Shown here: positions 575-44,254 of the stretch, piece after piece
How the letters are laid out: every line of letters starts with the position of its first letter
Position numbering within the stretch: the first letter of the stretch is position 1
Source of the DNA: Candidatus Moraniibacteriota bacterium
Lineage (GTDB): Bacteria > Patescibacteriota > Minisyncoccia > Moranbacterales > UBA1568
DNA: 64,000 bases
Reading direction: 5' to 3'
Assembly (NCBI GenBank): GCA_052034935.1
Contig: JBPOIB010000001.1
Location: 316,348-380,347 of the forward strand
Position numbers and translations under genes: made by a program
The notes under the pieces: model-generated
The model's input: only the letters and a program-made list of their open reading frames with translations
Database searches by the model: none
What the model was told of the DNA's origin: nothing

Positions 575-1315
575 TCAATTGGAGGCCTCACCAGAATCTA
601 GTTTGACGAATCGAATTGATCTCAGAATTTCCGCCAGAATACTCATACTTTCTTGATCACCGCTATCACACAAAACGTACGCGTGATGATGTCTTCCATC
701 TTGGACTTTAGATCCATCCAAACGACGAAGAGGGAAAGAAAATCCAAAGTCACTCGTACAAGCTCCAGTCTTACTAAAAGAATCATAGCTGCGCATAGCT
801 GATTCTAATTCTGCCTTGCTGTCATCGCACATTTCCACCATTTGAGAATTAAGCTGGATATTGTTACATACGCCATTACTCTTGCTAAATAAGTACTTTT
901 CGGTCGGTAAGTTATTCAGTAGTATTCCAATTTTTCCTGGCTTATCAATATCAATCCCGGTACGGCCATTCTTCAAAATTGTTACATAAACTACACCGGC
1001 TGAATCAGAATCTTGTTTGATGTAAAACTGCTTTTCTGGATACCTAAACTCAAACCCATATTCCTCATTTCGATAGATCTTCCAGTCAGAAGTATCAATT
1101 GGAGTTTGAGGCTCGGTCTGAACTGGAGACTCTACGACAGGATCAATTGTCACAGGCTGATTCGTAACTGCATGCCGTTTTTGCATCAACCAAAAGGCAC
1201 CACTAGTAGCGAGAAGGGCGGTGAGAGTAATAGTGAGAAAGACGGGTTTCTGATTCATAGGTTTGACACTCGAATATATTCCCATGGGGAATGTTTGTAA
1301 ATATTGACGATACAA
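575..1315 (-). CDS. hypothetical exported protein with N-terminal membrane anchor (alternative start near 1258)
   Basis: 246-aa ORF; hydrophobic segment VFLTITLTALLATSGAFWLM near the N-terminus; Cys/Asp-rich C-terminal half; no recognisable family. Lies directly upstream of the M23 peptidase on the same strand. Confidence 0.5.
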   Translation of the reverse strand: MYRQYLQTFPMGIYSSVKPMNQKPVFLTITLTALLATSGAFWLMQKRHAVTNQPVTIDPVVESPVQTEPQTPIDTSDWKIYRNEEYGFEFRYPEKQFYIKQDSDSAGVVYVTILKNGRTGIDIDKPGKIGILLNNLPTEKYLFSKSNGVCNNIQLNSQMVEMCDDSKAELESAMRSYDSFSKTGACTSDFGFSFPLRRLDGSKVQDGRHHHAYVLCDSGDQESMSILAEILRSIRFVKLDSGEASN

Positions 1316-1349
1316 TTAAAGTATAGCGTAACTCTAAAGCACCAAAAAA

Positions 1350-1382
1350 CCCTTCATCAGAAGGGTTTGCAATCAAAAAGCG
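1350..1382 (-). terminator. rho-independent terminator after the sugar-transferase gene
   Basis: Minus-strand hairpin AACCCTTC-tgat-GAAGGGTT followed by TTTTTTGG. Confidence 0.55.
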
Positions 1383-1396
1383 AAGGGTTGAGAGTA

Positions 1397-2812
1397 CTAA
1401 TTCTTGCGGCGACGAAGCAGCGTCTGGGCCGTTTTCAGACAGATCACAATATCAAGCCAAAGCGACCAATTCTCGATATAGAACACGTCGAGCCGATACT
1501 CGTCCTCAAAGTCGAGATCGGATCGTCCGGAAACCTGCGCCATCCCCGTCACGCCCGGCTTGATGGTGAGGAGACGGCGATGGTATTCACTGTATTTTTC
1601 TACTTCTCGTTTCTGATGCGGCCGCGGGCCCACCAGACTCATTTCGCCACGGAGCACATTGAAAAACTGGGGCAGTTCATCAAGGGAGTAGCGCTCAATG
1701 AAGCTGCCAATCCTCGTCTTGCGCGGATCATCCTTGATCTTGTAGAGCGGACCCTGGCGAACACTGCGCTCGGCGATGAGCTGCTTCTCATATTCGAGTG
1801 CCTGTTCAAAATTCGGGTTATCCTTATTGATACACCATTTCCACTGCATGTAGCGAAATTTGAAAACTGGAATCTTCTCACCATTCTCCCCGATTCGTTC
1901 ATTGGTATAGATGATCGGACCATCCGGATCTTCAAGTTTAGTCAGGAGGGCAATTACGAGCATTACCGGAGAGGCGATGATGGTCAACGCAAAACCACCC
2001 ACGAGATCGAAAGCTCGTTTCAAAACTTTCCCCCAACCATCGAGCGGCGTATGCTGAAACTCAATAATGGGCTCGCCATTGAAGATACTCATCGTGAATC
2101 GTGACGTTTCGCGCGTCGTCGGGAGATATTTCAGCGTAATGTTATTGATCTGGCAATAGTCGAGCAATTTCTGTTGTTCATCATCCGTCAGCGACGGATC
2201 GCACACCATAATCTCATCGAGTCCTCTTTCTTCTCGGATAGCCTTGATTGCATGGAGTGAAATCGTTTCGATTTGGCCGACCGTCACATACCCGAGATCC
2301 GGCCGAGTGGCGAACAGACTCTTCAACTGTTCGATTTTCCCGTTCGTACCGACCAGGAGAATACGATGTACGCCCACCCCCTTCTTCACGAGGTAGTAGC
2401 GCTGAATGCGCTGGATGAGATAACGAGCAATCGTCACATAGAACACTGCAAAAGACCAGCCGGCGAGAATAATGAAACGCGACGAAAACCATTCCCGCTT
2501 CAAGAATATCGTCACGATAATAAGCACGAGGACAAGTGATGTCGCCCGGAAGACCTTGAAAGCCTCAGAAAGCGGCGTTCTGGTCGCCCGCATCGTGTAG
2601 AGTCCCTCAATTGCATAGACGATGAGGAAAAGTGGCGCCACAGCAAGCGTCACCTGGAGAAAGTCGACCAGATCAATATTATAGAGCTTGGGCCGAAGCG
2701 CGAGAATCTGCGGAACATTGCGAACAGCAAACGCTGAAAGCGCCGCCAGGACAATCATGATAAAGTCCACCGGCAGCTGGATAGCACTGAAATAGATTTC
2801 GGAACGTTTCAC
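1397..2812 (-). CDS. undecaprenyl-phosphate sugar phosphotransferase (WbaP/bacterial sugar transferase family, polyprenyl glycosylphosphotransferase); GTG start
   Basis: 471 aa; N-terminal TM helices; C-terminal bacterial sugar-transferase domain with conserved ...LRGEMSLVGPRPH... motif and KIKDDPRKTRIG segment. Confidence 0.85.
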   Translation of the reverse strand: MKRSEIYFSAIQLPVDFIMIVLAALSAFAVRNVPQILALRPKLYNIDLVDFLQVTLAVAPLFLIVYAIEGLYTMRATRTPLSEAFKVFRATSLVLVLIIVTIFLKREWFSSRFIILAGWSFAVFYVTIARYLIQRIQRYYLVKKGVGVHRILLVGTNGKIEQLKSLFATRPDLGYVTVGQIETISLHAIKAIREERGLDEIMVCDPSLTDDEQQKLLDYCQINNITLKYLPTTRETSRFTMSIFNGEPIIEFQHTPLDGWGKVLKRAFDLVGGFALTIIASPVMLVIALLTKLEDPDGPIIYTNERIGENGEKIPVFKFRYMQWKWCINKDNPNFEQALEYEKQLIAERSVRQGPLYKIKDDPRKTRIGSFIERYSLDELPQFFNVLRGEMSLVGPRPHQKREVEKYSEYHRRLLTIKPGVTGMAQVSGRSDLDFEDEYRLDVFYIENWSLWLDIVICLKTAQTLLRRRKN

Positions 2813-5703: not shown

Positions 5704-6735
5704 CTAGAATTGGCGGATAAAGCGGAGGTCGCCCGACATGAGGAGGCGGATATCGGAAATCTTGTACTTCATCATGGCGAGCCGGGTCAGTCCGAAACCC
5801 CAAGCGAAACCCTGATACTGATTGCGCTTATAGCCGGCCGCTTCGAGTACGTTCTGATGGACCATACCCGCACCACCGATCTCGAGCCAGCCTGTCCCCT
5901 TGCAGACCGGACAGCCGCGACCATCGCAAAGAAGACAATTTACGTCAAATTCAAACGACGGCTCAGTGAATGGGAAAAAGCTCGGGCGCAGGCGGACGGT
6001 CGTCTCACGTTGAAAGAAGGCCGTGAAAAAGTTCTCCGCTACCGATTTGAAATTCGCAACGGAAACATGATCCCCCACCACCAAACATTCGAACTGATGA
6101 AAGGTGTGCTCATGCGAGGCATCGGTCGCTTCATTGCGGAAAATCCGGCCGGGTATGATGATTTGGAAGGGTGGCTTATGCGTTTCCATATACCGCACCT
6201 GAACCGAGGAAGTATGGGTCCGTGGCAAATATTTTTTTTTGCCCCACGTCTCTCCCAACCAGAAGGCATCCTGCATATCGCGGGCTGGATGATCGGGCGG
6301 AAAGTTCAAAGCATCAAAGTTATACCATTCACTTTCAATCTCCGGACCATCGGCGACGGAGAATCCCATGGAGGCGAAGATATCTTCAATCTCATGTTCG
6401 ATCCGTGTGATGGGATGGAGGTGTCCAGCACGCTCACTTTTGCCGGGTAGGGTCACATCAATCGCATCACTCACAACACCGATATCTTTCGAAAAGACAC
6501 GGTCCTTTGCCGCCTCAAAAGCCTCAAAAAGCTCGCGCTTGATACCGTTTCCGGCGGCGCCGACTGTTTTTCGCTCCTCGGGGGATAACTCCTTCACCCC
6601 TTTCAGCAGCGTGTTGAACTCGCTTTTCCGCCCGAGATACGTGTTTTCCCAGGCATGCAAAGAAGCCTCGTCTTTGGCCTCTGCGAGGGCACTTAGCGCT
6701 TCTTGTTGTATAGCTTTCAGTCGATCAAGGGTCAT
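5704..6735 (-). CDS. pheS: phenylalanine--tRNA ligase alpha subunit
   Basis: 343 aa; class II aaRS core with ...FPFTEPSFEFDV... and C-terminal GWLEIGGAGMVH...; 3 nt from pheT. Confidence 0.93.
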   Translation of the reverse strand: MTLDRLKAIQQEALSALAEAKDEASLHAWENTYLGRKSEFNTLLKGVKELSPEERKTVGAAGNGIKRELFEAFEAAKDRVFSKDIGVVSDAIDVTLPGKSERAGHLHPITRIEHEIEDIFASMGFSVADGPEIESEWYNFDALNFPPDHPARDMQDAFWLGETWGKKKYLPRTHTSSVQVRYMETHKPPFQIIIPGRIFRNEATDASHEHTFHQFECLVVGDHVSVANFKSVAENFFTAFFQRETTVRLRPSFFPFTEPSFEFDVNCLLCDGRGCPVCKGTGWLEIGGAGMVHQNVLEAAGYKRNQYQGFAWGFGLTRLAMMKYKISDIRLLMSGDLRFIRQF

Positions 6736-6766
6736 GCCGTCATTCTATCCATTCCTGTCGTCGCGG

Positions 6767-7975
6767 TCAAAAAACGATTCTAAAGAAGTCTTTCTTCCCC
6801 ACTTTTACTACCGCATCTTTGTGGTCATCGGAAACGACAACAGCAAAGTCTTCCAGTTTTTTTTCATTCACTGACACTCCGCCTTGTTCGATCTTCCGTC
6901 GCGCTTCCGTCTTGCTTGCCGCTACACCAGCCACAACCAAAAGCTCAGTGAATGCCGTACCAACAGACGTCTGTACCGAAGGCATCTCCGTTGGCACATG
7001 GCCTTTACTAAACGTCTCGATGAAATATTGTTCCGCCGCCGCTCCCGCTGTGGCACCATGGTACAGCGTGACGATTTCTTTCGCGAGCCGAACCTTCGCA
7101 TCGCGAGGATTCGCACCAGTCACAATCGCTTCAGCAAATTTGGCGATGTCCTCCATCGGTACGCGCGTACAGTGCACGAAATACTCCATGATGAGCTCGT
7201 CCGGAATGCTCATGCATTTCCCGAACATATCATTCGGCGTATCAAGGAGATTGATCGTGTTCCCCCAGCTCGAGCTCATCTTACGGCCATCGGTCCCGAG
7301 GATGAGGTTGGTCATGAGAATCCCCTGCTCTTTCTGACCGTACTTCGGCTGCATCGTTCGTCCGGCCAACAGATTGAAACGCTGATCGGTTCCGCCGAGC
7401 TCAACATCAGACTTCACGGTCACACTGTCATAGCCCTGCATCAGGGGATAGAGGAGCTCACGGAGAGAAACTCGCTTTCCTGCTTCGAGACGTTTCTTCA
7501 CGTTTTCCCGGGCAATGAATTCAGCGAGCGAGAACGCATCCGCCTGTTCCCCGATTTCCTTATAGGTCAGCGATCCCAGCCATTCGGAATTATGTCGCAC
7601 CTCGACCTTCGAAATATCGAGAATCTTGGCCGCCTGGTCGACATAGGATTGTAGATTTTGCTCGATGACCTCAGTCGAAAGCATTGGTCGTTCCGCTTCC
7701 TTGTCTGAAGTATCGCCGATGATGCCGGTAAAGTCGCCGACAATGAACACGACATCACAGCCCAATTCCTGGAAATCGCGCAGTTTCAAAAGCGGCACAG
7801 ACCGGCCGAGATGAAGGTTCGGGCTCGTCGGATCGATGCCGAGCTTCACCCGGAGTTTTTCGCCAGCAAGAAGCCGCTTCTTCAGATGCTCGCGGTCAAT
7901 CACTTCGGCCACACCGCGAGTCAAAAGCTCTTCAATTTTTTGTTCTCGGTTTTCCATATGTATGTATTCTACCAC
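6767..7975 (-). CDS. tyrS: tyrosine--tRNA ligase (possible true start at 7957)
   Basis: HIGH-region variant GIDPTSPNLHLGR, KMSKS variant KMSSS, C-terminal S4 RNA-binding domain (RRKIEQGGVSVNEKKL). Confidence 0.88.
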   Translation of the reverse strand: MVEYIHMENREQKIEELLTRGVAEVIDREHLKKRLLAGEKLRVKLGIDPTSPNLHLGRSVPLLKLRDFQELGCDVVFIVGDFTGIIGDTSDKEAERPMLSTEVIEQNLQSYVDQAAKILDISKVEVRHNSEWLGSLTYKEIGEQADAFSLAEFIARENVKKRLEAGKRVSLRELLYPLMQGYDSVTVKSDVELGGTDQRFNLLAGRTMQPKYGQKEQGILMTNLILGTDGRKMSSSWGNTINLLDTPNDMFGKCMSIPDELIMEYFVHCTRVPMEDIAKFAEAIVTGANPRDAKVRLAKEIVTLYHGATAGAAAEQYFIETFSKGHVPTEMPSVQTSVGTAFTELLVVAGVAASKTEARRKIEQGGVSVNEKKLEDFAVVVSDDHKDAVVKVGKKDFFRIVF

Positions 7976-8409
7976 CCGTATTCGCTGTATGAGATGTTAT
8001 TCTGAATATTTCCCAGAACCGTTCTAATGTAAGGAATAGTGTTTTCAGGCAAATAATCAATGGCAAACCAAGATAAATCATCACATTTCCCCGGTTCCCG
8101 ATTTTGTACTTCACCCTCCCAATGACTGACTGGGAAAAACGCGTCTACTCGTTCTGAACCATCTTCGCCTTTCCGGTGGAGAATATGCGGTGCAGCTAAC
8201 TCGCCTGGATCAATACGGACTCCAATTTCTTCATAAATCTCCCGAAGCAAGGCGGCCGTAAAACTCTCTCCCGGTTCGACATGCCCCGCCGGCAATGAAT
8301 ATTGACCGTCACAATACCCGGTATTCGCTCGGCGAGCGAGGAGCACCTTTCCGTCCTGAATAAGTACCAGGTAGGAAGCAAGGACATTGGTCGGGAGATG
8401 TTTCCCCAT
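7969..8409 (-). CDS. NUDIX hydrolase
   Basis: Nudix box GHVEPGESFTAALLREIYEEIGV (GX5EX7REUXEEXGU). Confidence 0.85.
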   Translation of the reverse strand: MGKHLPTNVLASYLVLIQDGKVLLARRANTGYCDGQYSLPAGHVEPGESFTAALLREIYEEIGVRIDPGELAAPHILHRKGEDGSERVDAFFPVSHWEGEVQNREPGKCDDLSWFAIDYLPENTIPYIRTVLGNIQNNISYSEYGW

Positions 8410-9681: not shown

Positions 9682-11367
9682 TTATTCTTTGGGCAGATCA
9701 AGTTTTTTCGGAGTAACGAGAATCCATGGGTGTTGTTCCATCCAATCGGCAAAAAGAAAATTCACCATAATCCGGACAAGCACAACGGCCGTGAAAAGCG
9801 AGAGAAGTACACCGAGCGCCAGAATGAAAGCAAAGCCCTTCACGAAGCCCGTCCCCATGCCCATAAGGATGACCGTGGTGATGATGGTCGAGAGGTGCCC
9901 ATCGCGAATTGACGGCCAGGCGCGGCGAAAACCTTCCTGCAAGGCCTTCCGCATCGACTTACCAAAGGCGAGCTCTTCGCGAGTACGCTCGAAGATAAGC
10001 ACGTTGGCATCGACCGCGATACCGATCGAGAGGATGAATCCGGCGATACCGGAAAGCGTGAGAGTAATCGGAAAGGGTGTAAACGCGGAGAGCTTGAAAA
10101 GCGCGAGAAGCATCGCCGAATAAAGGAGCAGCGCCAGAACAGCAATGAAACCAAGGAAACGATAGAAAAGGAGCATAAAAACCGAAACGGCTGCAAGACC
10201 GATGATACCGGCTCGGACGCTCTGGTCGAGAGCTGACTTGCCGAGCGAAGCGTCGATTGATTGCTGCGAGACGAGTGTGATCGGCACCGGGAGCGCTCCC
10301 TCGTTGAAACGCTTTACTTCAGCATTCGCCTCGGCCAAGGTAAAGTCGCTGGTAATGACCGCCTGGCCATCGCGGATTTCCGCCTGCACGGTCGGCTGAC
10401 TCATGATCTGGCCGTCGATGAAAATCGCGACCGGCTTCCCAATATTGCGCGAAGTGATATCGGCGAACAACTGTTTGCCTTCATCATTGAACCGGAGTGC
10501 GATCTGCGGCGATCCAATCCCCTGACTCTGGTAATCGACAAAGACATCAGTGAGGTGCTTACCCGAGAGTCCAGTCGCTTTGTACTTGAGCTGCGGGGCG
10601 TCATCGAGCGAGTACTTGGGGAAGAGGATATGCGCGATATTCACCTCACGCTCCTCACCCTCGCCCCGTTCATCGAGCTTCTTGATGATATGCCAGCCGA
10701 AAGTCGTCTCGACCAAAGCCGGATGAATCGCACCCTTCCCGAGGTTCGGATCGAAGGCAACCGCATCGAATTCCGGTACATAGGCACCCTGCTTGGCGAA
10801 ACCGAGCTCGCCGCCGGTTTCCTTTGCTCCCGGGTCCTGGCTCCAGGTCATTGCGAGCTCGCTGAAATCACTCCCCGCTTTCGCGTTATCGAGAATTTTG
10901 TCGGCCGTATCCTTCGACTGTGCATTATAGGTATCAATTTCGGTCTGCGCCTCCGGACCGGCCAGCTCCCGGAATTCGAGGAACGGCGTTTCCTTGATGA
11001 GATTCTTCGCTTCTTCGATGTCTTTGATGCCGGGCAGCTCGACGATGATCCGGTTCTCGGTCCCCGAACGCGAGAGCTGGACAACTGGTTCTCCAACACC
11101 GAAAGCGTTCACGCGCCGTTCGATCACATCGACCGCCGCCTGAAGCGCTTCATCCTGCTTCGCTTCGTCCACATCCGAGGTATCCGCCGCGTATTCAAGA
11201 TGGATGCCACCCTGGAGATCGAGGCCGAGATTGATTTGGGCCTGCTCGAAGAACCGCTCAATGGGCGGTACGAAGAAAGCGATTTTCGGGTAGGCAATCA
11301 GACTCGACGCCAGGGCGAGGAGAACGACACCCGCGAACTGATAGCGGAGGCGCTTGATAGCGTTCAT
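9682..11367 (-). CDS. secD: protein translocase subunit SecD carrying an inserted parvulin-type PPIase domain in the periplasmic P1 region
   Basis: N-terminal TM, then LGLDLQGG motif; aa about 140-235 read SDFSELAMTWSQDPGAKETGGELGFAKQGAYVPEFDAVAFDPNLGKGAIHPALVETTFGWHIIKKL, near-colinear with E. coli PpiC (ADFGKLAKKHS...GGDLGEF...MVPAFDKVVF...TQFGYHIIKVL); C-terminal 6-TM SecD core with RND-like motifs. Confidence 0.85.
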   Translation of the reverse strand: MNAIKRLRYQFAGVVLLALASSLIAYPKIAFFVPPIERFFEQAQINLGLDLQGGIHLEYAADTSDVDEAKQDEALQAAVDVIERRVNAFGVGEPVVQLSRSGTENRIIVELPGIKDIEEAKNLIKETPFLEFRELAGPEAQTEIDTYNAQSKDTADKILDNAKAGSDFSELAMTWSQDPGAKETGGELGFAKQGAYVPEFDAVAFDPNLGKGAIHPALVETTFGWHIIKKLDERGEGEEREVNIAHILFPKYSLDDAPQLKYKATGLSGKHLTDVFVDYQSQGIGSPQIALRFNDEGKQLFADITSRNIGKPVAIFIDGQIMSQPTVQAEIRDGQAVITSDFTLAEANAEVKRFNEGALPVPITLVSQQSIDASLGKSALDQSVRAGIIGLAAVSVFMLLFYRFLGFIAVLALLLYSAMLLALFKLSAFTPFPITLTLSGIAGFILSIGIAVDANVLIFERTREELAFGKSMRKALQEGFRRAWPSIRDGHLSTIITTVILMGMGTGFVKGFAFILALGVLLSLFTAVVLVRIMVNFLFADWMEQHPWILVTPKKLDLPKE

Positions 11368-14184: not shown

Positions 14185-14745
14185 TCAGCTCTTCACTTTT
14201 TTCAGATAGTCTTCTGTTTCTTGCAGTACACGCTTCGCATTCACGAAGGTCACTTTTTCCAATGCTCGGTTAAATGGGAGCCAGAGTGAACCGATATGCT
14301 CATGAGAGATTTTCACTTCGGTACTCCCATTCGCAAGGGCTGGATAGAAATGGACTATCTTGAAAATCCAAGTGCCCCGGCCTTCGCGCTTCCGACGTTC
14401 ATATTCATTGCCACGTGCCTCGTAGAAATACTTGATACTGACTCGCTCCGGATACACATCGAGTTCACTGATCCCGGTCTCTTCTTCCGTTTCACGCCGG
14501 AGCGTATCAACTTCCGTTTCACCACTCTCGATATGTCCCTTGGGGAAATCAAAATGCCCACTCGGATACTGAAGGATGAGGTATTCCCGCTCACCTTGTT
14601 CCGACCGTCGAAACAGAACGCTGCCAACCGAAACTTCCCAGACCGTCGGGAAGCCGAAAAGGCCAAGTGCCTGGCACAAAAATTTGTTCACAGGAAGGTG
14701 CATATGTCTCCAGATTACAGGGAAAAAAGACGATTGACAAAGCAC
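14185..14745 (-). CDS. NUDIX hydrolase (Ap4A/NudH-like; true start may be Met at 14703)
   Basis: Nudix box GHFDFPKGHIESGETEVDTLRRETEEETGI. Confidence 0.8.
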   Translation of the reverse strand: MLCQSSFFPVIWRHMHLPVNKFLCQALGLFGFPTVWEVSVGSVLFRRSEQGEREYLILQYPSGHFDFPKGHIESGETEVDTLRRETEEETGISELDVYPERVSIKYFYEARGNEYERRKREGRGTWIFKIVHFYPALANGSTEVKISHEHIGSLWLPFNRALEKVTFVNAKRVLQETEDYLKKVKS

Positions 14746-35618: not shown

Positions 35619-36509
35619 TTATTTGCCCGAGCTATCAAGCAGCTCTCGCATATGAGCTCTGACTTGTTCGCCGATATCCGGACGCTCGACCGCGTAAGAG
35701 AGAATAGCTGTCATATAGTTGAGAGGATCGCCAGTAGTCATCCACTGGCCATTTTCAACCGACTTGGCGTAAAAAGTCCCTCCGCCGGCGATGTAATTAT
35801 GAATCGCATCTACCAACCAGAGCTCATTCCCCTTACCGAGGGACGTAGAACGGAGAATATCGATGATTTCTTGATTCAAGATATACCGACCAAAGCCAGC
35901 AAGACGTGAAGGAGCCTCCTCCTGGGTCGGCTTTTCGATGATATTGCGGACCCGCATTGTCTCCGGATCGACATCGACGATACCGTATTTAGAAACTTCG
36001 CTCTCCAGCACCTCCTGAACACCCAGCATCGGTTGACCATGCCGATTATACTCATCGACCATCTGTTTGGTGAAGGAGACCTCCGATTTCACGAGATCAT
36101 CGCCGAAGCAGTAGATGAACGGCTCATCGTCAACGAGGCTCGCAGCCGAAAGCACTGGCGTCCCATTACCGTACGGACCTTTCTGGCGGACATGGACGAA
36201 GTTGGCCATTTCAGCGACCCGATGGACCTGATCGTAGCGATCCTGCTTCCCATTCTTCAATAGATCATCCTCGAGAGCAGTCGAGTAGTCGAAATGGTCC
36301 TCGAGCGGTTTCTTATCCCAGCGCGTAACGAAAATAATATCTTCGATACCAGCCTCTACGAGCTCTTCCACCACCAGCTGAATGATCGGCTTATCGACGA
36401 TTGGAAGCATTTCCTTCGGCATGGATTTCGTCGCTGGCAAGAGCCGTGTGCCGCTTCCCGCGACAGCAATAATCGCTTTCTTGATTTTCTTCGGTGCTGT
36501 ATCTGTCAT
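35619..36509 (-). CDS. galU: UTP--glucose-1-phosphate uridylyltransferase
   Basis: AIIAVAGSGTRLLPATKSMPKEMLPIVDKPIIQ, the GalU signature; 296 aa. Confidence 0.88.
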   Translation of the reverse strand: MTDTAPKKIKKAIIAVAGSGTRLLPATKSMPKEMLPIVDKPIIQLVVEELVEAGIEDIIFVTRWDKKPLEDHFDYSTALEDDLLKNGKQDRYDQVHRVAEMANFVHVRQKGPYGNGTPVLSAASLVDDEPFIYCFGDDLVKSEVSFTKQMVDEYNRHGQPMLGVQEVLESEVSKYGIVDVDPETMRVRNIIEKPTQEEAPSRLAGFGRYILNQEIIDILRSTSLGKGNELWLVDAIHNYIAGGGTFYAKSVENGQWMTTGDPLNYMTAILSYAVERPDIGEQVRAHMRELLDSSGK

Positions 36510-36536: not shown

Positions 36537-37340
36537 TTAGAGCGAAACGATGCGTTTGAACTCCTCGTTGAACTCGATGAGCGCTTCGCTGATCATCGGA
36601 TGGAAACGGTCACGGAATCTCTTCTCACGAACGAAATTACTCGCATCGAGAAGCGAATCATGCGTGCCAACATCGAACCAGGCTCCATCGATACGCCGGA
36701 CATCGAGTGCATCCTTGCCAAGATAATGGCGATGAAGATCGGTAATCTCAAGCTCCCCTCGTCCAGACGGCTGAAGTGATTTGGCAACCGCTACCACTTC
36801 CGCATCATAGATATAGAGTCCGGGAATAGCGAAATTGCTTTTCGGGACCTCCGGCTTCTCCTCGATCGAGATGACACGCCCAGTTTCGTTCTCGAATTCC
36901 ACCACGCCGAAACGTTCCGGATCCGGCACCTCCTTGGCAAAAATACGGCCGCCCCGCTCGAAACTTTTGATTGCCTCGATAAAGTCTCCCTCGAAGAGAT
37001 TGTCACCGAGAATCATCGTCACCGGACCGTTGTCGATGAAATCCTCGCCGAGAATGAAGGCCTCCGCTAATCCGCGCGGCTCCTTCTGAACGACGAATGA
37101 GATATTCACCCCCTGTTTCCGAAGCAATGATCCGAGCAGATTGAGATAGGTCCCTGCATGCTCCGGCGACACGATGATCAGGATATCCTTAATGCCAGCA
37201 GAAACGAGGGTATTCAGCGGATAGAAAATCATCGGCCGATCATAGACCGGTAAGAGTTGCTTCGAAGCGATTGCCGTCAGCGGGAGCAAGCGGGTGCCGT
37301 TGCCGCCGGCGAGGATGATTCCTTTCATAGAACGTTTCAT
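36537..37340 (-). CDS. rmlA: glucose-1-phosphate thymidylyltransferase-like sugar nucleotidyltransferase
   Basis: GIILAGGNGTRLLPLT...KQLLPVYDRPMIFYPL, the RmlA/short-form NTP-transferase fold; 267 aa is short, so substrate specificity is inferred from context (rmlBCD nearby). Confidence 0.65.
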   Translation of the reverse strand: MKRSMKGIILAGGNGTRLLPLTAIASKQLLPVYDRPMIFYPLNTLVSAGIKDILIIVSPEHAGTYLNLLGSLLRKQGVNISFVVQKEPRGLAEAFILGEDFIDNGPVTMILGDNLFEGDFIEAIKSFERGGRIFAKEVPDPERFGVVEFENETGRVISIEEKPEVPKSNFAIPGLYIYDAEVVAVAKSLQPSGRGELEITDLHRHYLGKDALDVRRIDGAWFDVGTHDSLLDASNFVREKRFRDRFHPMISEALIEFNEEFKRIVSL

Positions 37341-38600
37341 TTATCGATACACTGGAAACGCTTTGCAGAGTCTCTTCACTTCCATAGCAAGTCGTTTCAG
37401 CGTCCGGATATCGCCTTTAGCCCGAAGCGCCGCATCGATGACTCGCGCAATTTGCCTCACCTCTTTCTCTTTCATGCCGCGCGTCGTAAGGGCCGGTACG
37501 CCGATGCGCAGACCCGAAGGATCAATCGGTCCGCGCGGATCATTCGGTATGACGTTCTTATTGACCGTAATGCCGATGCTATCGAGCAGCGTCTCACCCT
37601 CCTTGCCGGTCACCCCGTGGCTTTTCACTACATCGATCAGCACCATATGATTTTCCGTCTTGCCGAAAACGATCGTGAAGCCGAGTGCTCGGAATTCTTC
37701 CTCGAGGGCCTTGGCATTCTTCAGGACTTGTTTTCCATAGGTCCGGAAAGATGGCTTGAGCGCCTCGCCGAAGGCCACAGCTTTGGCGGCAACCACCTGC
37801 ATATGCGGACCGCCCTGCGTTCCGGGAAAGACCGCTTTGTCGATCAGTTTAGCTATCGACTCGCGACAGAGAATGATGCCGCCGCGTGGTCCGCGGAGCG
37901 ACTTGTGTGTCGTTGCTGTGACGACATCGAAGTACGGGACCGGATTCGGAAGCGCTTTAGCGGCGACCAGACCGGCGATATGGGCCATGTCCATCATCGC
38001 ATAGGCTTTCACCTTCTTCGCGATGGCGGAAAATCTCGCATAATCAAGCTGTCGCGTATAGGAAGAGAATCCGGCCAAGAGAAGCTTCGGCTTTTCTTTC
38101 AGAGCGAGCGCCTCGAGCTTCTTGTAGTCGATCGTCCCATCCGGCTCAGTCTCGTAACGCACGAAACGGTAAACTTTAGCCGGTAAGGTGACCGGGTGGC
38201 CATGCGTCAGATGCCCGCCGTGGGACAGGTCCATGCCGAGCACGGTGTCGCCTGGCTCAAGGAGCGCCGCATAGACAGCGAGATTGGCCTGCGCACCGGA
38301 ATGCGGCTGGACATTGGCATGCTCCGCATCGAAAAGCTTCTTCGCACGATCAATCGCAAGCACCTCCACTTGGTCAGTATATGTCTGACCGCCGTAGTAG
38401 CGCTTACCCGGATAGCCCTCGGAATACTTGTTGGTCAGGGTTGTTCCAAGTGTCTCCAGCACGGACCTTGAGACGTAGTTCTCGGACGCGATCATTTCGA
38501 TTCCCTCCTCTTCGCGCTTCACCTCACCCATGACCGCCTTCCACACCGCCGGATCAGATTTCTTCAGATTTTTGTAGTCGAACATACGCGGAAATATCAA
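37341..38600 (-). CDS. glyA: serine hydroxymethyltransferase
   Basis: PLP-lysine region TTHKSLRGPRGG; 419 aa. Confidence 0.93.
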   Translation of the reverse strand: MIFPRMFDYKNLKKSDPAVWKAVMGEVKREEEGIEMIASENYVSRSVLETLGTTLTNKYSEGYPGKRYYGGQTYTDQVEVLAIDRAKKLFDAEHANVQPHSGAQANLAVYAALLEPGDTVLGMDLSHGGHLTHGHPVTLPAKVYRFVRYETEPDGTIDYKKLEALALKEKPKLLLAGFSSYTRQLDYARFSAIAKKVKAYAMMDMAHIAGLVAAKALPNPVPYFDVVTATTHKSLRGPRGGIILCRESIAKLIDKAVFPGTQGGPHMQVVAAKAVAFGEALKPSFRTYGKQVLKNAKALEEEFRALGFTIVFGKTENHMVLIDVVKSHGVTGKEGETLLDSIGITVNKNVIPNDPRGPIDPSGLRIGVPALTTRGMKEKEVRQIARVIDAALRAKGDIRTLKRLAMEVKRLCKAFPVYR

Positions 38601-38634: not shown

Positions 38635-39555
38635 CTAGAGCATATCGGCAAGATAGTCTTTCAGTGCCTCTTCATATGGACGAAGCTTCGGCCGTTTCGT
38701 ATTGAGGAGTACGGAAGTGTGAGGACGGCGGGCGGGACGCACCAGCCCCTGGGATGGGACCGGAATCACCTCGATCCGGAACTCGGCCTGGCGGTAGAGC
38801 TCAATTGTCGCCTGGAACCAGGTAACCGGATTCTCATTCGGAAGATGATAGATGCCCGGAGCAGCGTCCGAGGAGATGAGCTCGCGCGTCGCGAAGGCGA
38901 GGTCGGGAGCGTACGTGAAGCACCCCCTCTCATCATCGACTACCTCCACACTCGACCCGTTCTTTGCCTTCATGAGCATCGTATCGAAAAAGCTTTTCTT
39001 ACCAAGACTAGAGATCGCCGGCTCGCCGAAGAGTTTCGAGAGTCGGACAAGATATCCCTTGCCGCCAGCCGCGAGAACTGCCTGCTCACCCTCATATTTC
39101 GACAGTCCGTAACGAGAAATCGGATTCGGTACGGCATCCTCGGCATACCCGGCTTCATTCATTCCATCGAAAACATAGTCCGTCGAGTAATGAACAAAGA
39201 TGATGCCCTTTTCCGCGCTATAGCGAGCGAGATAGCCGGGGACATCCCGGTTCAGGACAAGCGCTTTCCGGTACTCGTCGTCATCCGCCTCGCAGGCATC
39301 AACCGCATTGTAAGCCACGGCATTGATCATCATGTCCGGAGCGAAAGCGGCGATTTTTTCGAGCGAAGCTACCTCTTCCGTCAGATTGATTTCAGTCGTA
39401 TCCCAGAGTGCGAGCTCATAGCCCGCCAATCGAAAGTCCTGACCAAGCGCCTGGCCCAGCATTCCTTTCGCCCCGAGAATCAGGGCTTTTTTTCGTGTTT
39501 TTTGTCCGGTATCATTCATAGCCTCCTTATTATAGCAAATCGCTCGTACTGACAA
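38635..39555 (-). CDS. rmlD: dTDP-4-dehydrorhamnose reductase (true start possibly Met at 39519)
   Basis: Rossmann ILGAKGMLG, catalytic region YSTDYVFDG...YGLSKYEGE (YxxxK) typical of RmlD. Confidence 0.78.
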   Translation of the reverse strand: MSVRAICYNKEAMNDTGQKTRKKALILGAKGMLGQALGQDFRLAGYELALWDTTEINLTEEVASLEKIAAFAPDMMINAVAYNAVDACEADDDEYRKALVLNRDVPGYLARYSAEKGIIFVHYSTDYVFDGMNEAGYAEDAVPNPISRYGLSKYEGEQAVLAAGGKGYLVRLSKLFGEPAISSLGKKSFFDTMLMKAKNGSSVEVVDDERGCFTYAPDLAFATRELISSDAAPGIYHLPNENPVTWFQATIELYRQAEFRIEVIPVPSQGLVRPARRPHTSVLLNTKRPKLRPYEEALKDYLADML

Positions 39556-39557
39556 TT

Positions 39558-40214
39558 TTAACCGAGAAAAGGCATGAAGTCATGCATGGTACCCTCGGTC
39601 ATATCGATATATTCGATACCGAGCGGCTCGAGCAGCATTTTCGGGATGCGTCGGGTCGGACCGAGCTGATGTTCTTGCCGCAGCATCCCATCATGGACCG
39701 GAAAGACTGCTTTCGGCTTAATAATTTTCGCATACTCGATTGCTTCCTCAAGCCGCATCCAGGGTCCAGCAACTGGCAGAGCGAGAACGGCGACGTCCTT
39801 CTTCGGATCATGAAAAGAATCGCCCGGGTAAAAGAGCGCCCCGTCGATGTAAAAACCTGTGTTCTGAACCTTCGGCAAATCGTGATGGATGCAGGCATGA
39901 ACGCTCCCGCTACTCTCAATCGACACATCCTTCACTGTCACCGTCTCACCGTCAGCAATCAGTGTATGCGTGATGCTGGCTTCATCCAGTATCCTTCCCA
40001 CGCTCGCATGCGTGATTACCTTTGCTCCGGGATTTTTCGCAAGGATAACCTCGAGACTCTCGGTATGAAGATGGTCCTGATGCTCGTGTGAAATAAGAAC
40101 AGCATCGATATCTGCCACCATTGGCGTCTCATTGTAGTTTCCCGGATCGGTCAGGATTCGTACGCCCTTCACTTCGATCAAGAGGCAGCAATGCCCGAAT
40201 TTCGTGATTTTCAT
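39558..40214 (-). CDS. MBL-fold metallo-hydrolase (ORF track extends to 40259)
   Basis: HxHxDH motif (ISHEHQDHL), downstream His/Asp ligands. Confidence 0.75.
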   Translation of the reverse strand: MKITKFGHCCLLIEVKGVRILTDPGNYNETPMVADIDAVLISHEHQDHLHTESLEVILAKNPGAKVITHASVGRILDEASITHTLIADGETVTVKDVSIESSGSVHACIHHDLPKVQNTGFYIDGALFYPGDSFHDPKKDVAVLALPVAGPWMRLEEAIEYAKIIKPKAVFPVHDGMLRQEHQLGPTRRIPKMLLEPLGIEYIDMTEGTMHDFMPFLG

Positions 40215-40218
40215 AGAA

Positions 40219-40686
40219 CTACTTTCTCTTCTTAAACAAAATTGCGAGCACTTTATCAAAGCCCGGGAGCAACCGTAGCCCCTTCGCCTCGCTTAGTTTG
40301 AGCCATACGTAATTTTTCGCCTCCCAATCAAGTCGCACCTCGTCTGTGTCCACAGTTACGAGGACAGGATGAACAATCCACGTCTTCTTATATTTCGGCT
40401 CTTCCTGATCAAAAATCTCGCCGAGCCGGATAGACACAATATGCTTCTTAGCCAGACCGAGTTCTTCACGAAGTTCTTCCCTCACTTTTTCCTCCAAGCT
40501 TTTCTGGTCATCGAGGAATCCAGAAATACCATTCCAGTAGCCTGGATAGAGTCGTAGTGAAGCACTCCGTTCAACGAGAAGAATTTTTTGCTTATACTTT
40601 ACGACACAATTAATCACAGGCGCCCAGCGGACATTGGTAAAATCCACTTGACCAGGACGAGGTTGAAAAACCTTCTCTTTCTTCAT
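40219..40686 (-). CDS. NUDIX hydrolase
   Basis: Nudix box GFLDDQKSLEEKVREELREELGL. Confidence 0.8.
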   Translation of the reverse strand: MKKEKVFQPRPGQVDFTNVRWAPVINCVVKYKQKILLVERSASLRLYPGYWNGISGFLDDQKSLEEKVREELREELGLAKKHIVSIRLGEIFDQEEPKYKKTWIVHPVLVTVDTDEVRLDWEAKNYVWLKLSEAKGLRLLPGFDKVLAILFKKRK

Positions 40687-40688
40687 AT

Positions 40689-41015
40689 TTACCCTTTATT
40701 CCGTTTTCGAATCTTCTGAATCTTACCGTCGAGCACCGACATGATATCGACATCCATCGCCCTGGCTAGCATGAAGAGCACGATGAGGACGTCCACAAAT
40801 TCACCTTCCAGATCTCCGGATTTCCCACGAGCGAGCTTCTCCTTTCGTTGATCGCCGACCGAAGCGAGCACGGCATCACAGAGTTCGCCGTACTCTTCGC
40901 CAAGCTTGATTGTCCGGGCGAAAATCCGATTCTTTTGTGTCTGCCTCTTCTCCTTTCGGAAGAATTCGTGCTGCTCGTCGATGAATTGTCGAAACTCTTC
41001 AAACGTCATACTCAT
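40689..41015 (-). CDS. MazG-like nucleotide pyrophosphohydrolase (small single-domain form)
   Basis: 108 aa; EExGELxxA-type motif (LGEEYGELCDAV) and second acidic helix (DLEGEFVDVLIVLFMLA). Confidence 0.65.
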   Translation of the reverse strand: MSMTFEEFRQFIDEQHEFFRKEKRQTQKNRIFARTIKLGEEYGELCDAVLASVGDQRKEKLARGKSGDLEGEFVDVLIVLFMLARAMDVDIMSVLDGKIQKIRKRNKG

Positions 41016-41668
41016 TTTTCCAGTTTCAAAAACTCCCCTTCACTTACTACATCAATCTGATCATCAGTAATTTTAAGTGCTGAATCATCATCAAGAGCAT
41101 ACACGGTTGTGGGAAACTTCAGAGCGAGTGAACGGATGAGATTAGTCCGAAGATGGGCGAAATAATCAGAATTCAGATGCGGCAATATCGAAAGATCAAG
41201 CATGTCTAGTCCAGTCTCATCCCCCACAAAAGATTCCTCCGGCCAAAGCTCGCGAGTAAGTTCCGTAGGCAAAAGCTTACCGACGACCATACTCCCTGCG
41301 CTAATCCCCATATACACTCGCGTCTTCAAAAGCTCCGGCAGGACTTCGGCCACGCCGGACTCTCGCATCACTTTCGCCAAATATTGCTCATCGCCACCGC
41401 CGAAACAAAGTACATCTGCCGATTCAAAGCGTGCCAGCCAGTTCTCACGTGGTACAGCGGCAATATCCACGATATCGAAAGATTTCAATCTGAGCCGAAG
41501 GAACTCATTGTAGTTTTCAACGAGCCAGCTCTTATCATCAGCCACCAGGCTTGCAGCTGTCGGAACGAATACAACGGACACTTCGTTCACCGGCTTACCC
41601 AATAATTCAAACAACGACTTTTCAATTGAGGCATTACTCAGCCCATCAGAAGTCAGGAGAAATTTCAT
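41012..41668 (-). CDS. peptidase S51 / type-1 glutamine-amidotransferase-like protein (PepE/cyanophycinase-like)
   Basis: MKFLLTSDGL...VVFVPTAA...ADVLCFGGGD...YMGISAGSMV, the S51 Ser nucleophile context. Confidence 0.7.
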   Translation of the reverse strand: MKFLLTSDGLSNASIEKSLFELLGKPVNEVSVVFVPTAASLVADDKSWLVENYNEFLRLRLKSFDIVDIAAVPRENWLARFESADVLCFGGGDEQYLAKVMRESGVAEVLPELLKTRVYMGISAGSMVVGKLLPTELTRELWPEESFVGDETGLDMLDLSILPHLNSDYFAHLRTNLIRSLALKFPTTVYALDDDSALKITDDQIDVVSEGEFLKLEK

Positions 41669-41669
41669 A

Positions 41670-42215
41670 CTATATGTTTTGACTCAAGTAACGAAGCAAT
41701 ACCAAGGCACTCCGCTCCTCGCTTATAGAACCATCGAGACACATGCCCCTTGCTTTCTCGCAATCAAAATATTCAAAAACAATATCTTCTCCATGCTCTA
41801 GCTGTTGCTCAACCTTACTGAAATCATTTACAACAAAATAGTAGAGATCCCAAACAATTGTTGCACCACAAACAGATTTGTGGAAAAAAGAAATGTCCTT
41901 CACTTCTATCCCTGCTTCTTCATGCGCTTCCTTGATAGCAGCCCGCTGAGCAGACTCATTGATATCTACACCTCTCTCCAATGCGCTATTGTACTCATCG
42001 AGTGAATCATAGACTTTTCCTCCCGGAAGTCGATAGTCATACCCGTCAAGTTCATGACGAAATTCTTTGGTCAAAAGAATTGTCTTACCCTGAGGAATAA
42101 TGAGTCGCGTCCCAGGTGAACGCCGAGCAAATTCAAACATTTTTTTCACACCAGCTTGCTCAACATCCTTCTGTACCACTTCAATTATCTTCCCCTTGTA
42201 AGTGATATTTTCCAT
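41670..42215 (-). CDS. NUDIX hydrolase (ADP-ribose pyrophosphatase-like)
   Basis: Nudix box GGKVYDSLDEYNSALERGVDINESAQRAAIKEAHEEAGI. Confidence 0.78.
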   Translation of the reverse strand: MENITYKGKIIEVVQKDVEQAGVKKMFEFARRSPGTRLIIPQGKTILLTKEFRHELDGYDYRLPGGKVYDSLDEYNSALERGVDINESAQRAAIKEAHEEAGIEVKDISFFHKSVCGATIVWDLYYFVVNDFSKVEQQLEHGEDIVFEYFDCEKARGMCLDGSISEERSALVLLRYLSQNI

Positions 42216-42218
42216 ACA

Positions 42219-42689
42219 TTAACAATCAACAAATCCGCCAATATAACTCGCTTCATAAACACACTCACCGTCTCGATAGATTTTCTCGGTACCGGAAAAA
42301 TTCTCTACCAATCCATCAATATCGTTTTCATACCGCCAATTTTCTTTCTCGAAAACTGCCGGGCCGCGATAGGGAACATCCTCTGTCGTATGGCGAAGTG
42401 CCTCCGTGAGAACGCCATACACTGCAGTATTACCAATTTCAGTATAGACAAATCCGTAGTACACCATCATCCACACAGCTTTGCCTTGGTAAAATACGAC
42501 TTCTCGACCACCATACGGTTCACCGCCGAAGTAATTGTCATGGAACTTGAAATCTCCTTCCGCAAACTCAATGGTTGTTGATCCGTCCAGCTGTTTCACT
42601 TTGATTGATTCATCACCCGACGCATACGTCGCGCGACTCGCAGAATAAATAAACCTTCTTAATTTCTCATGATCAAACCTATTTTCCAT
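42219..42689 (-). CDS. hypothetical conserved protein, possibly DUF5680-like (ORF track extends to 42722, overlapping rmlB)
   Basis: Pattern FHDNYFGGEPYGGREVVFYQGKAVWMMVYYG and C-terminal YIGGFVD resembles my recollection of DUF5680; unverified. Confidence 0.4.
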   Translation of the reverse strand: MENRFDHEKLRRFIYSASRATYASGDESIKVKQLDGSTTIEFAEGDFKFHDNYFGGEPYGGREVVFYQGKAVWMMVYYGFVYTEIGNTAVYGVLTEALRHTTEDVPYRGPAVFEKENWRYENDIDGLVENFSGTEKIYRDGECVYEASYIGGFVDC

Positions 42690-43680
42690 ATTGTTCGGAA
42701 TAGTATTTCTGATACTCCCCACTTTTCACATTCTTCCACCAGGTTTCATTAACTTTGAACCACTCAACGGTCCTAGCCAGTCCTTCTTCCAAATTCACTG
42801 ATGGTTCCCAGCCAAGCTCGGTTTTAATCTTGTCGAAGTTGATGGCGTAGCGACGGTCATGGCCGGGCCGGTCCTTCACGTACTCGATTGATGACTCGTC
42901 TTTGCCAAGGAGCCTGAGAAGTTCCTTCACGATCCAAATATTTTCCCGTTCGCCGTCGCCACCAACACAGTAGGTCTCGCCAATTGTTCCTTTTTCGAGG
43001 ATAAGCGCGATCGCCCGCGCATGATCCTCCACATACAGCCAGTCGCGCACCTGAGCGCCGTCCCCATACACCGGGATTTTCTTTCCATCGAGGAGGTTGG
43101 TAATCGCAAGCGGAATAAGTTTCTCGGGGAAGTGATAGGGGCCATAATTATTGGAGCAATTCGATATCGTAACCGGCAGACCGAACGTATGGAAATAGGC
43201 CCGGACGAGGTGATCGCTCCCAGCCTTGCTCGCACTGTAGGGACTGCGCGGATCATAGGGCGTTGCCTCATCGAACGCTGGGTCGGCTGGCGCAAGCGCA
43301 CCAAAAACCTCATCGGTTGAGACGTGATGAAACCGCTTCATATGTTTCCGCGCTGCCTCAAGAAGCGTAAACGTTCCGAGCACATTCGTCCGGACGAAAG
43401 CCTCCGGACCAAGAATAGATCGATCGACATGACTTTCAGCCGCAAAATGGACAATCGCATCACACTCTGCTACGAGCGAATCAACGAGCGAGACATCAGT
43501 GATGTCGCCTTTCACGAAACGGTAGCGTGAGTCGCCTTCGAACTCCTTTAGGTTTTCCGGATTGCCCGCATAGGTCAGGAGATCGAGATTGATGATTTCC
43601 ACCTCGAGATTACTCCCAAGCATGTAACGGATAAAATTTGATCCGATGAATCCAGCGCCACCGGTAACAAGAAGTTTCAT
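42679..43680 (-). CDS. rmlB: dTDP-glucose 4,6-dehydratase (ORF track extends to 43722; MKLLVTGGAGFIGS is the conventional N-terminus)
   Basis: Rossmann TGGAGFIGSNF, catalytic YSASKAGSDHLV (YxxxK), RmlB-specific C-terminal segment. Confidence 0.9.
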   Translation of the reverse strand: MKLLVTGGAGFIGSNFIRYMLGSNLEVEIINLDLLTYAGNPENLKEFEGDSRYRFVKGDITDVSLVDSLVAECDAIVHFAAESHVDRSILGPEAFVRTNVLGTFTLLEAARKHMKRFHHVSTDEVFGALAPADPAFDEATPYDPRSPYSASKAGSDHLVRAYFHTFGLPVTISNCSNNYGPYHFPEKLIPLAITNLLDGKKIPVYGDGAQVRDWLYVEDHARAIALILEKGTIGETYCVGGDGERENIWIVKELLRLLGKDESSIEYVKDRPGHDRRYAINFDKIKTELGWEPSVNLEEGLARTVEWFKVNETWWKNVKSGEYQKYYSEQYGK

Positions 43681-43684
43681 AATT

Positions 43685-44254
43685 TTACGCTGTAAGGATT
43701 GGGTTTGTGAAAACAAATTCACTCGAGATTTCCGAAAGGAGCGGATGCCGCTGATCCTTTTCTGAAACGATTCGCTCAGTCACACCCCAGTCGATACCGA
43801 CTGCCGGGTCATCGAAGCGGATGCCGCGGTCATACCCCTTGGAATACGCATTCGTGCACTTGTAGGAAAAAATCGTATTGTCCTCGAGCGCCGCAAACCC
43901 GTGAGCGAAGCCAGCTGGGATCCAAAACTGGCGATGGTTATCGGCTGAAAGCTCAACCGCGACATGCTTCCCGTACGTCGGCGATCCGGTCCGGATATCG
44001 ACCGCGACATCCATCACCCGACCGCGAAGCACTGAAACGAGCTTGCCCTGGGCGAACGGCGACGTCTGATAGTGCAATCCGCGAATAACGCCTTTTTTTG
44101 ACACTGAAACATTATCCTGAACAAAGGCATCCGGAATCCCTGCCTCGCGATACCGGCTACTATTGAAGGATTCGAAGAAGTATCCGCGTTCATCCCGGTA
44201 GATATCCGGCTCGATGACAAGTAGTCCTTCGATAGCGGTTCTGGCGACATTCAT
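43685..44254 (-). CDS. rmlC: dTDP-4-dehydrorhamnose 3,5-epimerase
   Basis: LLVIEPDIYRDERGYFFESF ... RGLHYQ ... cupin-fold RmlC motifs. Confidence 0.9.
   Translation of the reverse strand: MNVARTAIEGLLVIEPDIYRDERGYFFESFNSSRYREAGIPDAFVQDNVSVSKKGVIRGLHYQTSPFAQGKLVSVLRGRVMDVAVDIRTGSPTYGKHVAVELSADNHRQFWIPAGFAHGFAALEDNTIFSYKCTNAYSKGYDRGIRFDDPAVGIDWGVTERIVSEKDQRHPLLSEISSEFVFTNPILTA

Follow-up and report, generated by a model that had tools for sequence, protein, structure and literature searches.

The DNA examined here, a 64,000-nucleotide stretch referred to below as the window, comes from a Candidatus Moraniibacteriota bacterium (contig JBPOIB010000001.1 of assembly GCA_052034935.1, positions 316,348–380,347 of the forward strand) and carries six small genes between rmlB and rmlD of a dTDP-rhamnose gene set. 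These genes occupy 39558–42689 on the minus strand, and all six are intact open reading frames (ORFs) by the ORF listing and Pfam. The original prediction, made from the sequence of the window, had described a co-directional six-gene block at this position encoding metallo-beta-lactamase (MBL)-fold, NUDIX, MazG-like, S51, NUDIX and DUF5680 proteins; the block is indeed present, and Pfam supports each of the six domain calls.

In the direction of transcription, the first gene of the block (42219–42689) encodes a DUF5680 protein of 156 residues (PF18931, 7e-29). Its start is the ATG at 42689; the resulting product matches database protein P0001 exactly, and the gene overlaps the end of rmlB by 11 nt. 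This gene is followed by NUDIXb (41670–42215, 181 aa), which is ADP-ribose/NDP-X pyrophosphatase-like (Pfam NUDIX, 4e-8; 33.7 bits against a cut-off of 21.1), and then by a peptidase S51-like protein of the PepE/cyanophycinase family with a class I glutamine amidotransferase-like fold (41012–41668, 218 aa; PF03575, 5e-27, 95 bits against 23.9). The stop of the latter is overlapped by 4 nt by the gene for a MazG-like all-alpha nucleoside triphosphate (NTP) pyrophosphohydrolase (40689–41015, 108 aa; PF03819, 7e-7, 29.8 bits against 22). The block closes with NUDIXa, a MutT/NudI-like protein (40219–40686, 155 aa; PF00293, 7e-11, 42.7 bits against 21.1), and an MBL-fold metallo-hydrolase (Lactamase_B_3, UPF0173-like; 39558–40214, 218 aa from MKITKF; 1e-27, 97.6 bits against 24), the start of which most likely lies at 40214. 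From rmlC through the MBL gene, all junctions fall between −11 and +4 nt. The gap between the MBL gene and rmlD is +2 nt with the mechanically chosen TTG start of rmlD and about 38 nt with an ATG start; an ATG near 39519 is likely the true start of rmlD, as orthologues of 287–294 residues imply. The starts of the DUF5680, MBL and rmlD genes had thus been slightly mis-set before, while the ORFs themselves stand.

Comparison with related genomes places these genes in a slot of variable content. Loci were taken around homologues of the block genes and around 80 GTDB species representatives carrying DUF5680, and the window proteins were mapped onto them; homologues of DUF5680, S51 and NUDIXb came nearly all from metagenome-assembled genomes of Patescibacteria (Parcubacteria/Paceibacteria). 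A family-level clade shares the gene order mraZ–rsmH–PBP (penicillin-binding protein)–murF–(TerC)–KH–rmlC–rmlB–slot–rmlD–glyA–rmlA–galU–hypothetical–GT4–DUF4012–murJ, and in the window's own bacterium, an uncultured, ultra-small member of the Paceibacteria (Patescibacteria/candidate phyla radiation), the slot lies in a long co-directional cell-envelope array of the order mraZ–rsmH–PBP–murF–KH–rmlC–rmlB–slot–rmlD–glyA–rmlA–galU–GT4–DUF4012–murJ. Within the family-level clade, the slot between rmlB and rmlD holds from one to seven genes. With D for DUF5680, Nb for NUDIXb, S for S51, M for MazG-like, Na for NUDIXa and B for MBL, the window reads D–Nb–S–M–Na–B, and L001, from the same population, reads D–Nb up to its contig end. 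L086 carries D–S–M, a 126-aa membrane protein, Na–B and a 163-aa ORF. L085, the locus with the closest flanks (95–96% identical), has a 249-aa ORF with a GC content of 0.34, then S–M–B; L087 has D–S–M and L004 has D–M–B. L007 carries D–M, a 225-aa alpha/beta-hydrolase-like protein and B; L003 carries D–M and a 288-aa ORF on the opposite strand; L006 carries D–Na and a 168-aa ORF homologous to the 163-aa ORF of L086; and L005 carries D, a 189-aa ORF and S before its contig ends. L002 retains D only, and L168/L169 hold a 143-aa ORF followed by Nb. The 249-aa ORF of L085 (9245–9994) sits at the DUF5680 position at a GC of 0.34 against about 0.50 in its neighbours, has a sub-threshold match to the DNA-binding domain of the RnlA toxin (25.6 bits against 27) and looks like a recent foreign replacement.

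Several features of this survey bear on how the block arose. The relative order of the shared slot genes is constant (DUF5680, NUDIXb, S51, MazG, NUDIXa, MBL), with lineage-specific singletons interspersed, and the identity of the block genes ranks like that of the flanks, with L085 and L004 closest. Together these two observations favour a single ancestral block that has undergone differential loss and occasional gains. DUF5680 persists more often than any other slot gene, no relative holds all six genes, and each member is missing from some close relative. Among the loci surveyed the six genes do not recur as a complete unit; relatives share subsets of them at this site, always in one order. 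A metagenome scan with RmlB retrieved mostly distant rml loci from outside the candidate phyla radiation (CPR), and only the two nearest outgroup loci, L088 and L089, were useful. Both share the order rmlB–rmlD–glyA(–rmlA–galU) and lack the slot: in L088 (RmlB 72% identical) rmlB overlaps rmlD, and in L089 (RmlB 65%) rmlD follows 126 nt after rmlB. This adjacency of rmlB and rmlD supports the original view of the block as an insertion, yet as one state of a variable slot.

The block genes are under purifying selection, with ratios of nonsynonymous to synonymous substitution rates (dN/dS) of 0.04–0.11 against L085 and L004, compared with 0.01–0.10 for the flanks, and these low values indicate that they are functional. 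The synonymous rate against L085 ranges from 0.17 to 1.77 across the locus, a tenfold spread. In addition, L001 matches the window at 97–100% identity outside a divergent tract of about 1.4 kb at 78–90% (L001 2001–3400, window about 42700–44100), which takes in the bulk of rmlB together with the 3′ half of rmlC and is clearly the product of recombination between co-existing strains. The variation in synonymous rate and the L001 tract show that the locus recombines and is mosaic. In terms of composition, GC at third codon positions (GC3) is 0.41 in DUF5680, 0.38 in NUDIXb, 0.47 in S51 and 0.49 in NUDIXa against 0.57–0.66 in the flanks, and it matches the flanks in the MazG-like (0.62) and MBL (0.58) genes. 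At the gene level, the GC dip across the block is thus due to the former four and not to the MazG-like or MBL genes; the GC of DUF5680 is also lower in relatives. Along the DNA itself, window positions 40000–43000 have a GC of 0.45–0.48 against about 0.53 in the flanks, with a GC skew of −0.16 to −0.24.

With respect to the surroundings, the region from 35.6 to 49.8 kb of the window forms one co-directional minus-strand array according to the ORF listing and the Pfam and NCBIfam scans. Upstream of the slot lie rmlC (dTDP-4-dehydrorhamnose 3,5-epimerase, 43685–44254; Pfam dTDP_sugar_isom, 4e-74; TIGR01221, 246 bits against a cut-off of 156) and rmlB (dTDP-glucose 4,6-dehydratase, 42679–43680, 333 aa from ATG as in its orthologues; TIGR01181, 500 bits against 365). 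Downstream follow rmlD (dTDP-4-dehydrorhamnose reductase, 38635–39555; RmlD_sub_bind, 5e-64; TIGR01214, 214.6 bits against 224), glyA (serine hydroxymethyltransferase, 37341–38600; NF000586, 577 bits against 335), an rmlA-like glucose-1-phosphate thymidylyltransferase gene (36537–37340; NTP_transferase, 2e-59; best NCBIfam match TIGR01207, 299 bits against 361) and a galU-like UTP-glucose-1-phosphate uridylyltransferase gene, through which the envelope array runs on (35619–36509; TIGR01099, 277 bits against 327); all of these are on the minus strand. All four rml enzymes are therefore encoded, RmlB and RmlC above the NCBIfam equivalog cut-offs and RmlD and RmlA with the rml families as their best matches, yet just under those cut-offs. 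The rml genes are not contiguous, being separated by the six genes between rmlB and rmlD and by glyA between rmlD and rmlA. The segment 36537–39555 had been read as rmlA plus rmlD, and both genes are there; the glyA between them had been missed. This glyA site is kept across the whole clade and in both outgroups, and a link of glyA to thymidylate/dTTP supply for RmlA, with the MazG-like protein as a putative dUTPase or dCTPase, is conceivable. As for gene spacing, 55 of the 67 mechanically chosen ORFs of the window are on the minus strand, about 93% of the window is coding, and same-strand gaps have a median of 19 nt, with 19 of 45 at 10 nt or less. Closely spaced co-directional genes are typical of the window as a whole, and packing alone is thus no evidence of a functional operon. 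No Rfam match, and hence no regulatory RNA or riboswitch, was found in the 33–51 kb region of the window.

The proteins themselves resemble generic enzymes. The closest solved relative of the MazG-like protein is Bacillus subtilis YpjD (PDB 2gta, 7e-4), and its ExxE (EYGE at residue 41) and ExxD (EFVD at residue 72) metal-binding motifs are kept. NUDIXa has as its closest PDB structures the MutT-related 3grn and NudI, and its Nudix box is the variant GFLDDQKSLEEKVREELREELGL, in which the Glu of GX5E is replaced by Lys and the Arg of the RE pair by Glu. The same pattern, Glu to Lys/Arg and the Arg of REUXEE to Glu/Asp, occurs in 3 of 3 orthologues (window 40219–40686; L086 11440–11901; L006 4030–4491), and it looks like a compensating charge swap. 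NUDIXb gives a weak PDB match to the NudF ADP-ribose pyrophosphatase 5c7q (1.5e-3) and weak NCBIfam matches to NudE, YffH and YtkD (TIGR00052, 23 bits against 79.6; NudE, 26 against 169), so that it fails the equivalog or subfamily cut-offs of the nucleotide-sugar/ADP-ribose pyrophosphatases NudF, NudE and YffH; its Nudix box is non-canonical as well, with an insertion of about 14 aa after GG and an Arg-to-Lys change. Neither box fits the canonical GX5EX7REUXEEXGU, and both retain the EE pair along with the Glu before it. The S51 protein, which has no exact match on record and whose relatives came from homologue searches, matches Lmo0363 and PepE in the PDB and carries a GISAG (GxSxG) nucleophile elbow at residue 121; it falls short of the PepE (33 against 156) and cyanophycinase (30 against 127) equivalogs. 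The MBL protein matches the UPF0173 proteins TM_1162 and Igni_1254, and its HEHQDH (HxHxDH) motif is intact at residue 43. None of the closest solved relatives of the five hydrolases is a dTDP- or UDP-sugar enzyme. The equivalog scores of the NUDIX and MazG-like proteins are far under their cut-offs, and because these cut-offs are not approached no substrate can be assigned.

DUF5680 is a large family, with 2,043 representatives at 50% clustering, most of them stand-alone and nearly all about 155 aa long. It is strongly conserved, with a mean column identity of 74% and invariant HDNYFGGEPYGGRE, WMMVYYG and PYRGP motifs. No relative of known fold was found among solved structures. Rare multidomain members (P0495, P0447 and P0508) carry an N-terminal HTH_3 (XRE) domain, two SH3 domains or Clp_N, and these fusions are more suggestive of binding or sensing than of catalysis. 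Compared with the XRE-family regulators that have a C-terminal DUF5680, the window protein shares the PF18931 domain and stands alone, without a DNA-binding domain. Literature searches on DUF5680, Nudix proteins in Patescibacteria, CPR dTDP-rhamnose and nucleotide salvage yielded nothing relevant.

Taken together, these observations lead us to regard the block, with a probability of roughly 0.55, as an ancestral and dispensable accessory block of independently acting hydrolases plus DUF5680, housed in a clade-specific variable slot. The presence in the same rml set of another unrelated gene, glyA, supports this interpretation. As judged from their families, the MazG-like protein and NUDIXa would be cytoplasmic (d)NTP pyrophosphatases, NUDIXb a pyrophosphatase of the NDP-X/ADP-ribose type, the MBL protein a phosphodiesterase or esterase of broad specificity and the S51 protein a dipeptidase-like enzyme, each presumably working alone in house-cleaning or salvage; DUF5680 may be a small ligand- or partner-binding protein. 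Expression would come from read-through of a constitutive envelope array. Gene loss would reshape the slot, as would homologous recombination in the conserved rmlB and rmlD/glyA sequences on either side. A role in house-cleaning or salvage is suggested by the general biology of the MutT/NUDIX and MazG superfamilies and by the reduced biosynthetic capacity commonly described for CPR bacteria. House-cleaning as a concept for nucleotide pyrophosphatases, covering MutT/NUDIX proteins and the MazG all-alpha NTP-PPase superfamily, was reportedly set out by Galperin and colleagues in 2006.

Several points weigh against this interpretation. The slot survey comprises about 12 loci, several of them on truncated contigs, and the enzyme substrates it invokes are putative. 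Promoter and terminator scans of the array gave signals near shuffle background, and co-transcription is deduced from spacing only. GC3 values as low as those of the DUF5680, NUDIXb, S51 and NUDIXa genes (0.38–0.49) sit awkwardly with old residency at the locus, and a fixed order, with the genes kept time and again at one site under purifying selection, could point to joint function. A further objection comes from the neighbourhoods of DUF5680 outside the clade. In 76 such loci (0.98 Mb), scanned with an S51 hidden Markov model from 120 homologues and with a jackhmmer profile that had NUDIXa as its only seed, 12 of 16 NUDIX matches lay within 1.5 kb of DUF5680 (20.6% expected; binomial P = 4.5e-6, uncorrected for kinship), as did 4 of 4 S51 matches (20.6% expected; P = 1.8e-3, likewise uncorrected). 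Pure hitch-hiking does not predict such an enrichment.

This enrichment underlies the alternative that DUF5680 is the centre of a module, in which DUF5680 together with NUDIX and S51 enzymes turns over some nucleotide-linked metabolite independently of rhamnose, the rml site being simply where it landed. We consider this rather unlikely as a full account of the block. The orientations and distances differ between DUF5680 loci, which favours repeated association, and by Pfam 7 of 138 first neighbours are NUDIX genes, with 2 NUDIX and 2 S51 genes among 116 second neighbours. The strong conservation of the family and its HTH_3, SH3 and Clp_N fusions, which point to a binding or sensor domain, fit as well. 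Against this, most DUF5680 loci have neither partner nearby, and the neighbours are very mixed, including RuvB in 6 of 71 upstream positions, DNA polymerase III delta′/clamp-loader subunits, tRNA synthetases and methyltransferases. Within the clade, L002 keeps DUF5680 alone and L085 keeps S51–MazG–MBL without it, and the NUDIX enrichment carries the limits of kinship and of a profile from one seed. Such a module would be compatible with our preferred view of an accessory block in a variable slot, and DUF5680 might serve in it, for example, as a substrate-binding or regulatory partner. The statistical neighbourhood link of DUF5680 with NUDIX and S51 genes across Patescibacteria lends partial support to the original proposal; the link of the block to rml is confined to one clade.

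A second alternative, which takes up the role first proposed for the block, is that it recycles or proofreads nucleotide-sugars or envelope precursors (dTDP/UDP-sugars or UDP-MurNAc-peptides) made by the rml, galU and mur genes. What speaks for it is the single slot inside the rml set across the whole clade, an array that also contains murF, PBPs, galU and murJ, and the likeness of NUDIXb to ADP-ribose/NDP-sugar pyrophosphatases such as NudE, YffH and NudF. In addition, one NUDIXb homologue (L172) adjoins a sugar-1-phosphate nucleotidyltransferase. The comparative data nonetheless make it a doubtful proposition. The outgroups have the same rml genes without the block, each member is dispensable in some rml-carrying relative, and unrelated glyA is embedded in the same set. 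Outside the clade, rml genes occurred within 10 kb in 0 of 76 DUF5680 loci, and NUDIXb homologues that are 72–74% identical are found beside alaS and a histidine phosphatase (L170); another belongs to a run of small-enzyme genes with an integrase close by (L171). Furthermore, the MazG-like protein and NUDIXa resemble (d)NTP pyrophosphatases and not NDP-sugar hydrolases. With the rml link confined to one clade and the solved relatives generic, a role specific to dTDP-sugars, and the dTDP/UDP-sugar recycling originally suggested, is not supported. A combination of the two alternatives, in which DUF5680 is the partner of NUDIX/S51 hydrolases in an undescribed turnover of nucleotide derivatives and has been recruited into the rml/division and cell wall (dcw) array to police envelope precursors, strikes us as a long shot.

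The original prediction had also considered a nucleotide-pool-manipulating module of phage-defence type, since MazG and NUDIX folds occur in some phage and defence contexts. In PADLOC-DB 2.0 only the generic NUDIX model PDC-S07 was matched, by the two block NUDIX proteins (4e-6 and 2e-3) and by none of the other four proteins; the same model scores the housekeeping NUDIX gene at 7969 better (2e-13). Eight slot-specific ORFs of the relatives gave no credible PADLOC match, and a defence system was rejected on these grounds. DUF5680 had no relatives in phage records, viral contigs or viral structure models, and PHROGs gave superfamily-level matches only, which led us to reject a phage origin too. 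Flanking repeats, attC-like inverted repeats, intI, tRNA genes and Rfam elements were not found at the block, and no integrase was seen among the annotated window ORFs; with junctions too short for attC, an integron or mobile-element origin was likewise rejected. The hypervariability of the slot, which recalls defence hotspots, and the low-GC gene of L085 with its sub-threshold RnlA match are thus outweighed by the lack of a nuclease, ATPase, sensor, toxin partner or integrase at the block, by a DUF5680 without viral relatives and by a housekeeping-operon setting under strong purifying selection, which together make a defence module very improbable and leave a defence role unsupported.

The components of our preferred interpretation, an interrupted rml cluster, a variable islet and house-cleaning hydrolases, are individually of known kinds. 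Like a standard rmlABCD (rfb) cluster, the window encodes all four enzymes co-directionally; it differs in being split twice, in the order C–B–block–D–glyA–A, whereas most other loci retrieved with rmlB have at least two rml genes adjacent or near-adjacent. Two NUDIX-fold proteins and a single-domain MazG-like protein, with metal-binding Glu/Asp motifs kept, are as expected of house-cleaning pyrophosphatases; their clustering with S51, MBL and DUF5680 genes, the deviation of both Nudix boxes from the canonical form and the low equivalog scores are not. Flexible genomic islets, additive or replacement, occur in conserved operons and often in surface-glycan loci. The slot resembles these in its conserved flanks, variable content, mosaic synonymous rates and the recombination tract in rmlC/rmlB. 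It differs in lacking an integrase, tRNA, insertion sequence (IS) element or repeats, in holding small soluble hydrolases and not glycosyltransferases, and in a colinear order, which suggests mainly that different genes were lost from a single ancestral block. Integron gene-cassette arrays share with it short, promoter-less, co-directional, tightly packed ORFs of variable content; here, though, the junctions leave no room for attC, and neither attC-like repeats nor intI were found.

If the accessory-block interpretation is correct, neither tight packing nor position within a pathway cluster implies shared function in CPR genomes, and a set of genes that looks like a cassette in a single genome can represent just one of the states of a variable slot. 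The locus also documents a recombination-prone hotspot inside a Paceibacteria cell-envelope array, and the neighbourhood link of DUF5680 to NUDIX and S51 genes offers a starting point for the function of a widespread CPR protein.

In terms of NUDIX content, the window does hold four such genes, as had been noted. The two outside the block (7969–8409 and 14185–14745) are real and lie among the housekeeping genes pheST, tyrS, secDF and a class A PBP. The unusual density that had been claimed is only modest: four per 64 kb compare with about 0.9 in 1.02 Mb of other Patescibacteria loci at P ~0.01 by a crude motif tuned on the window, and the excess is not significant with a strict canonical motif (P = 0.13).

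Elsewhere in Paceibacteria, the Nomurabacteria-like contig L171 (800–12537) carries a similarly mixed array of small-enzyme genes, three of them NUDIX. This array encodes acetyltransferases, a NUDIX–APH fusion, a dCMP deaminase, a serine hydrolase, a methyltransferase, a short-chain dehydrogenase/reductase (SDR), the NUDIXb homologue, a His_Phos_1 protein and another NUDIX protein, followed by an integrase and a serine recombinase. A His_Phos_1 gene directly follows the NUDIXb homologue both here (6001–7072) and in the unrelated contig L170 (6001–7088), and the two genes may form a conserved pair.

Among DUF5680 loci, L023 carries two copies (1175–1642, minus strand, and 9995–10462, plus strand), about 8.4 kb apart and inverted relative to each other; both share 62% identity with the window protein. 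A stand-alone DUF5680 that is 35% identical to the window protein is present on seven Bacillus cereus-group megaplasmids; in L176, from Bacillus cereus pBFR_2 (NZ_CP009606.1, 218418–218894), it adjoins an IS3 element and an SMI1/KNR4 gene, an uninformative context. Lastly, the SecD homologue of the window (9682–11367, minus strand) contains a PPIC-type peptidyl-prolyl isomerase (Rotamase) domain at residues 146–233, inserted between the first periplasmic segment and the P1 head in what looks like an unusual translocon–foldase fusion.

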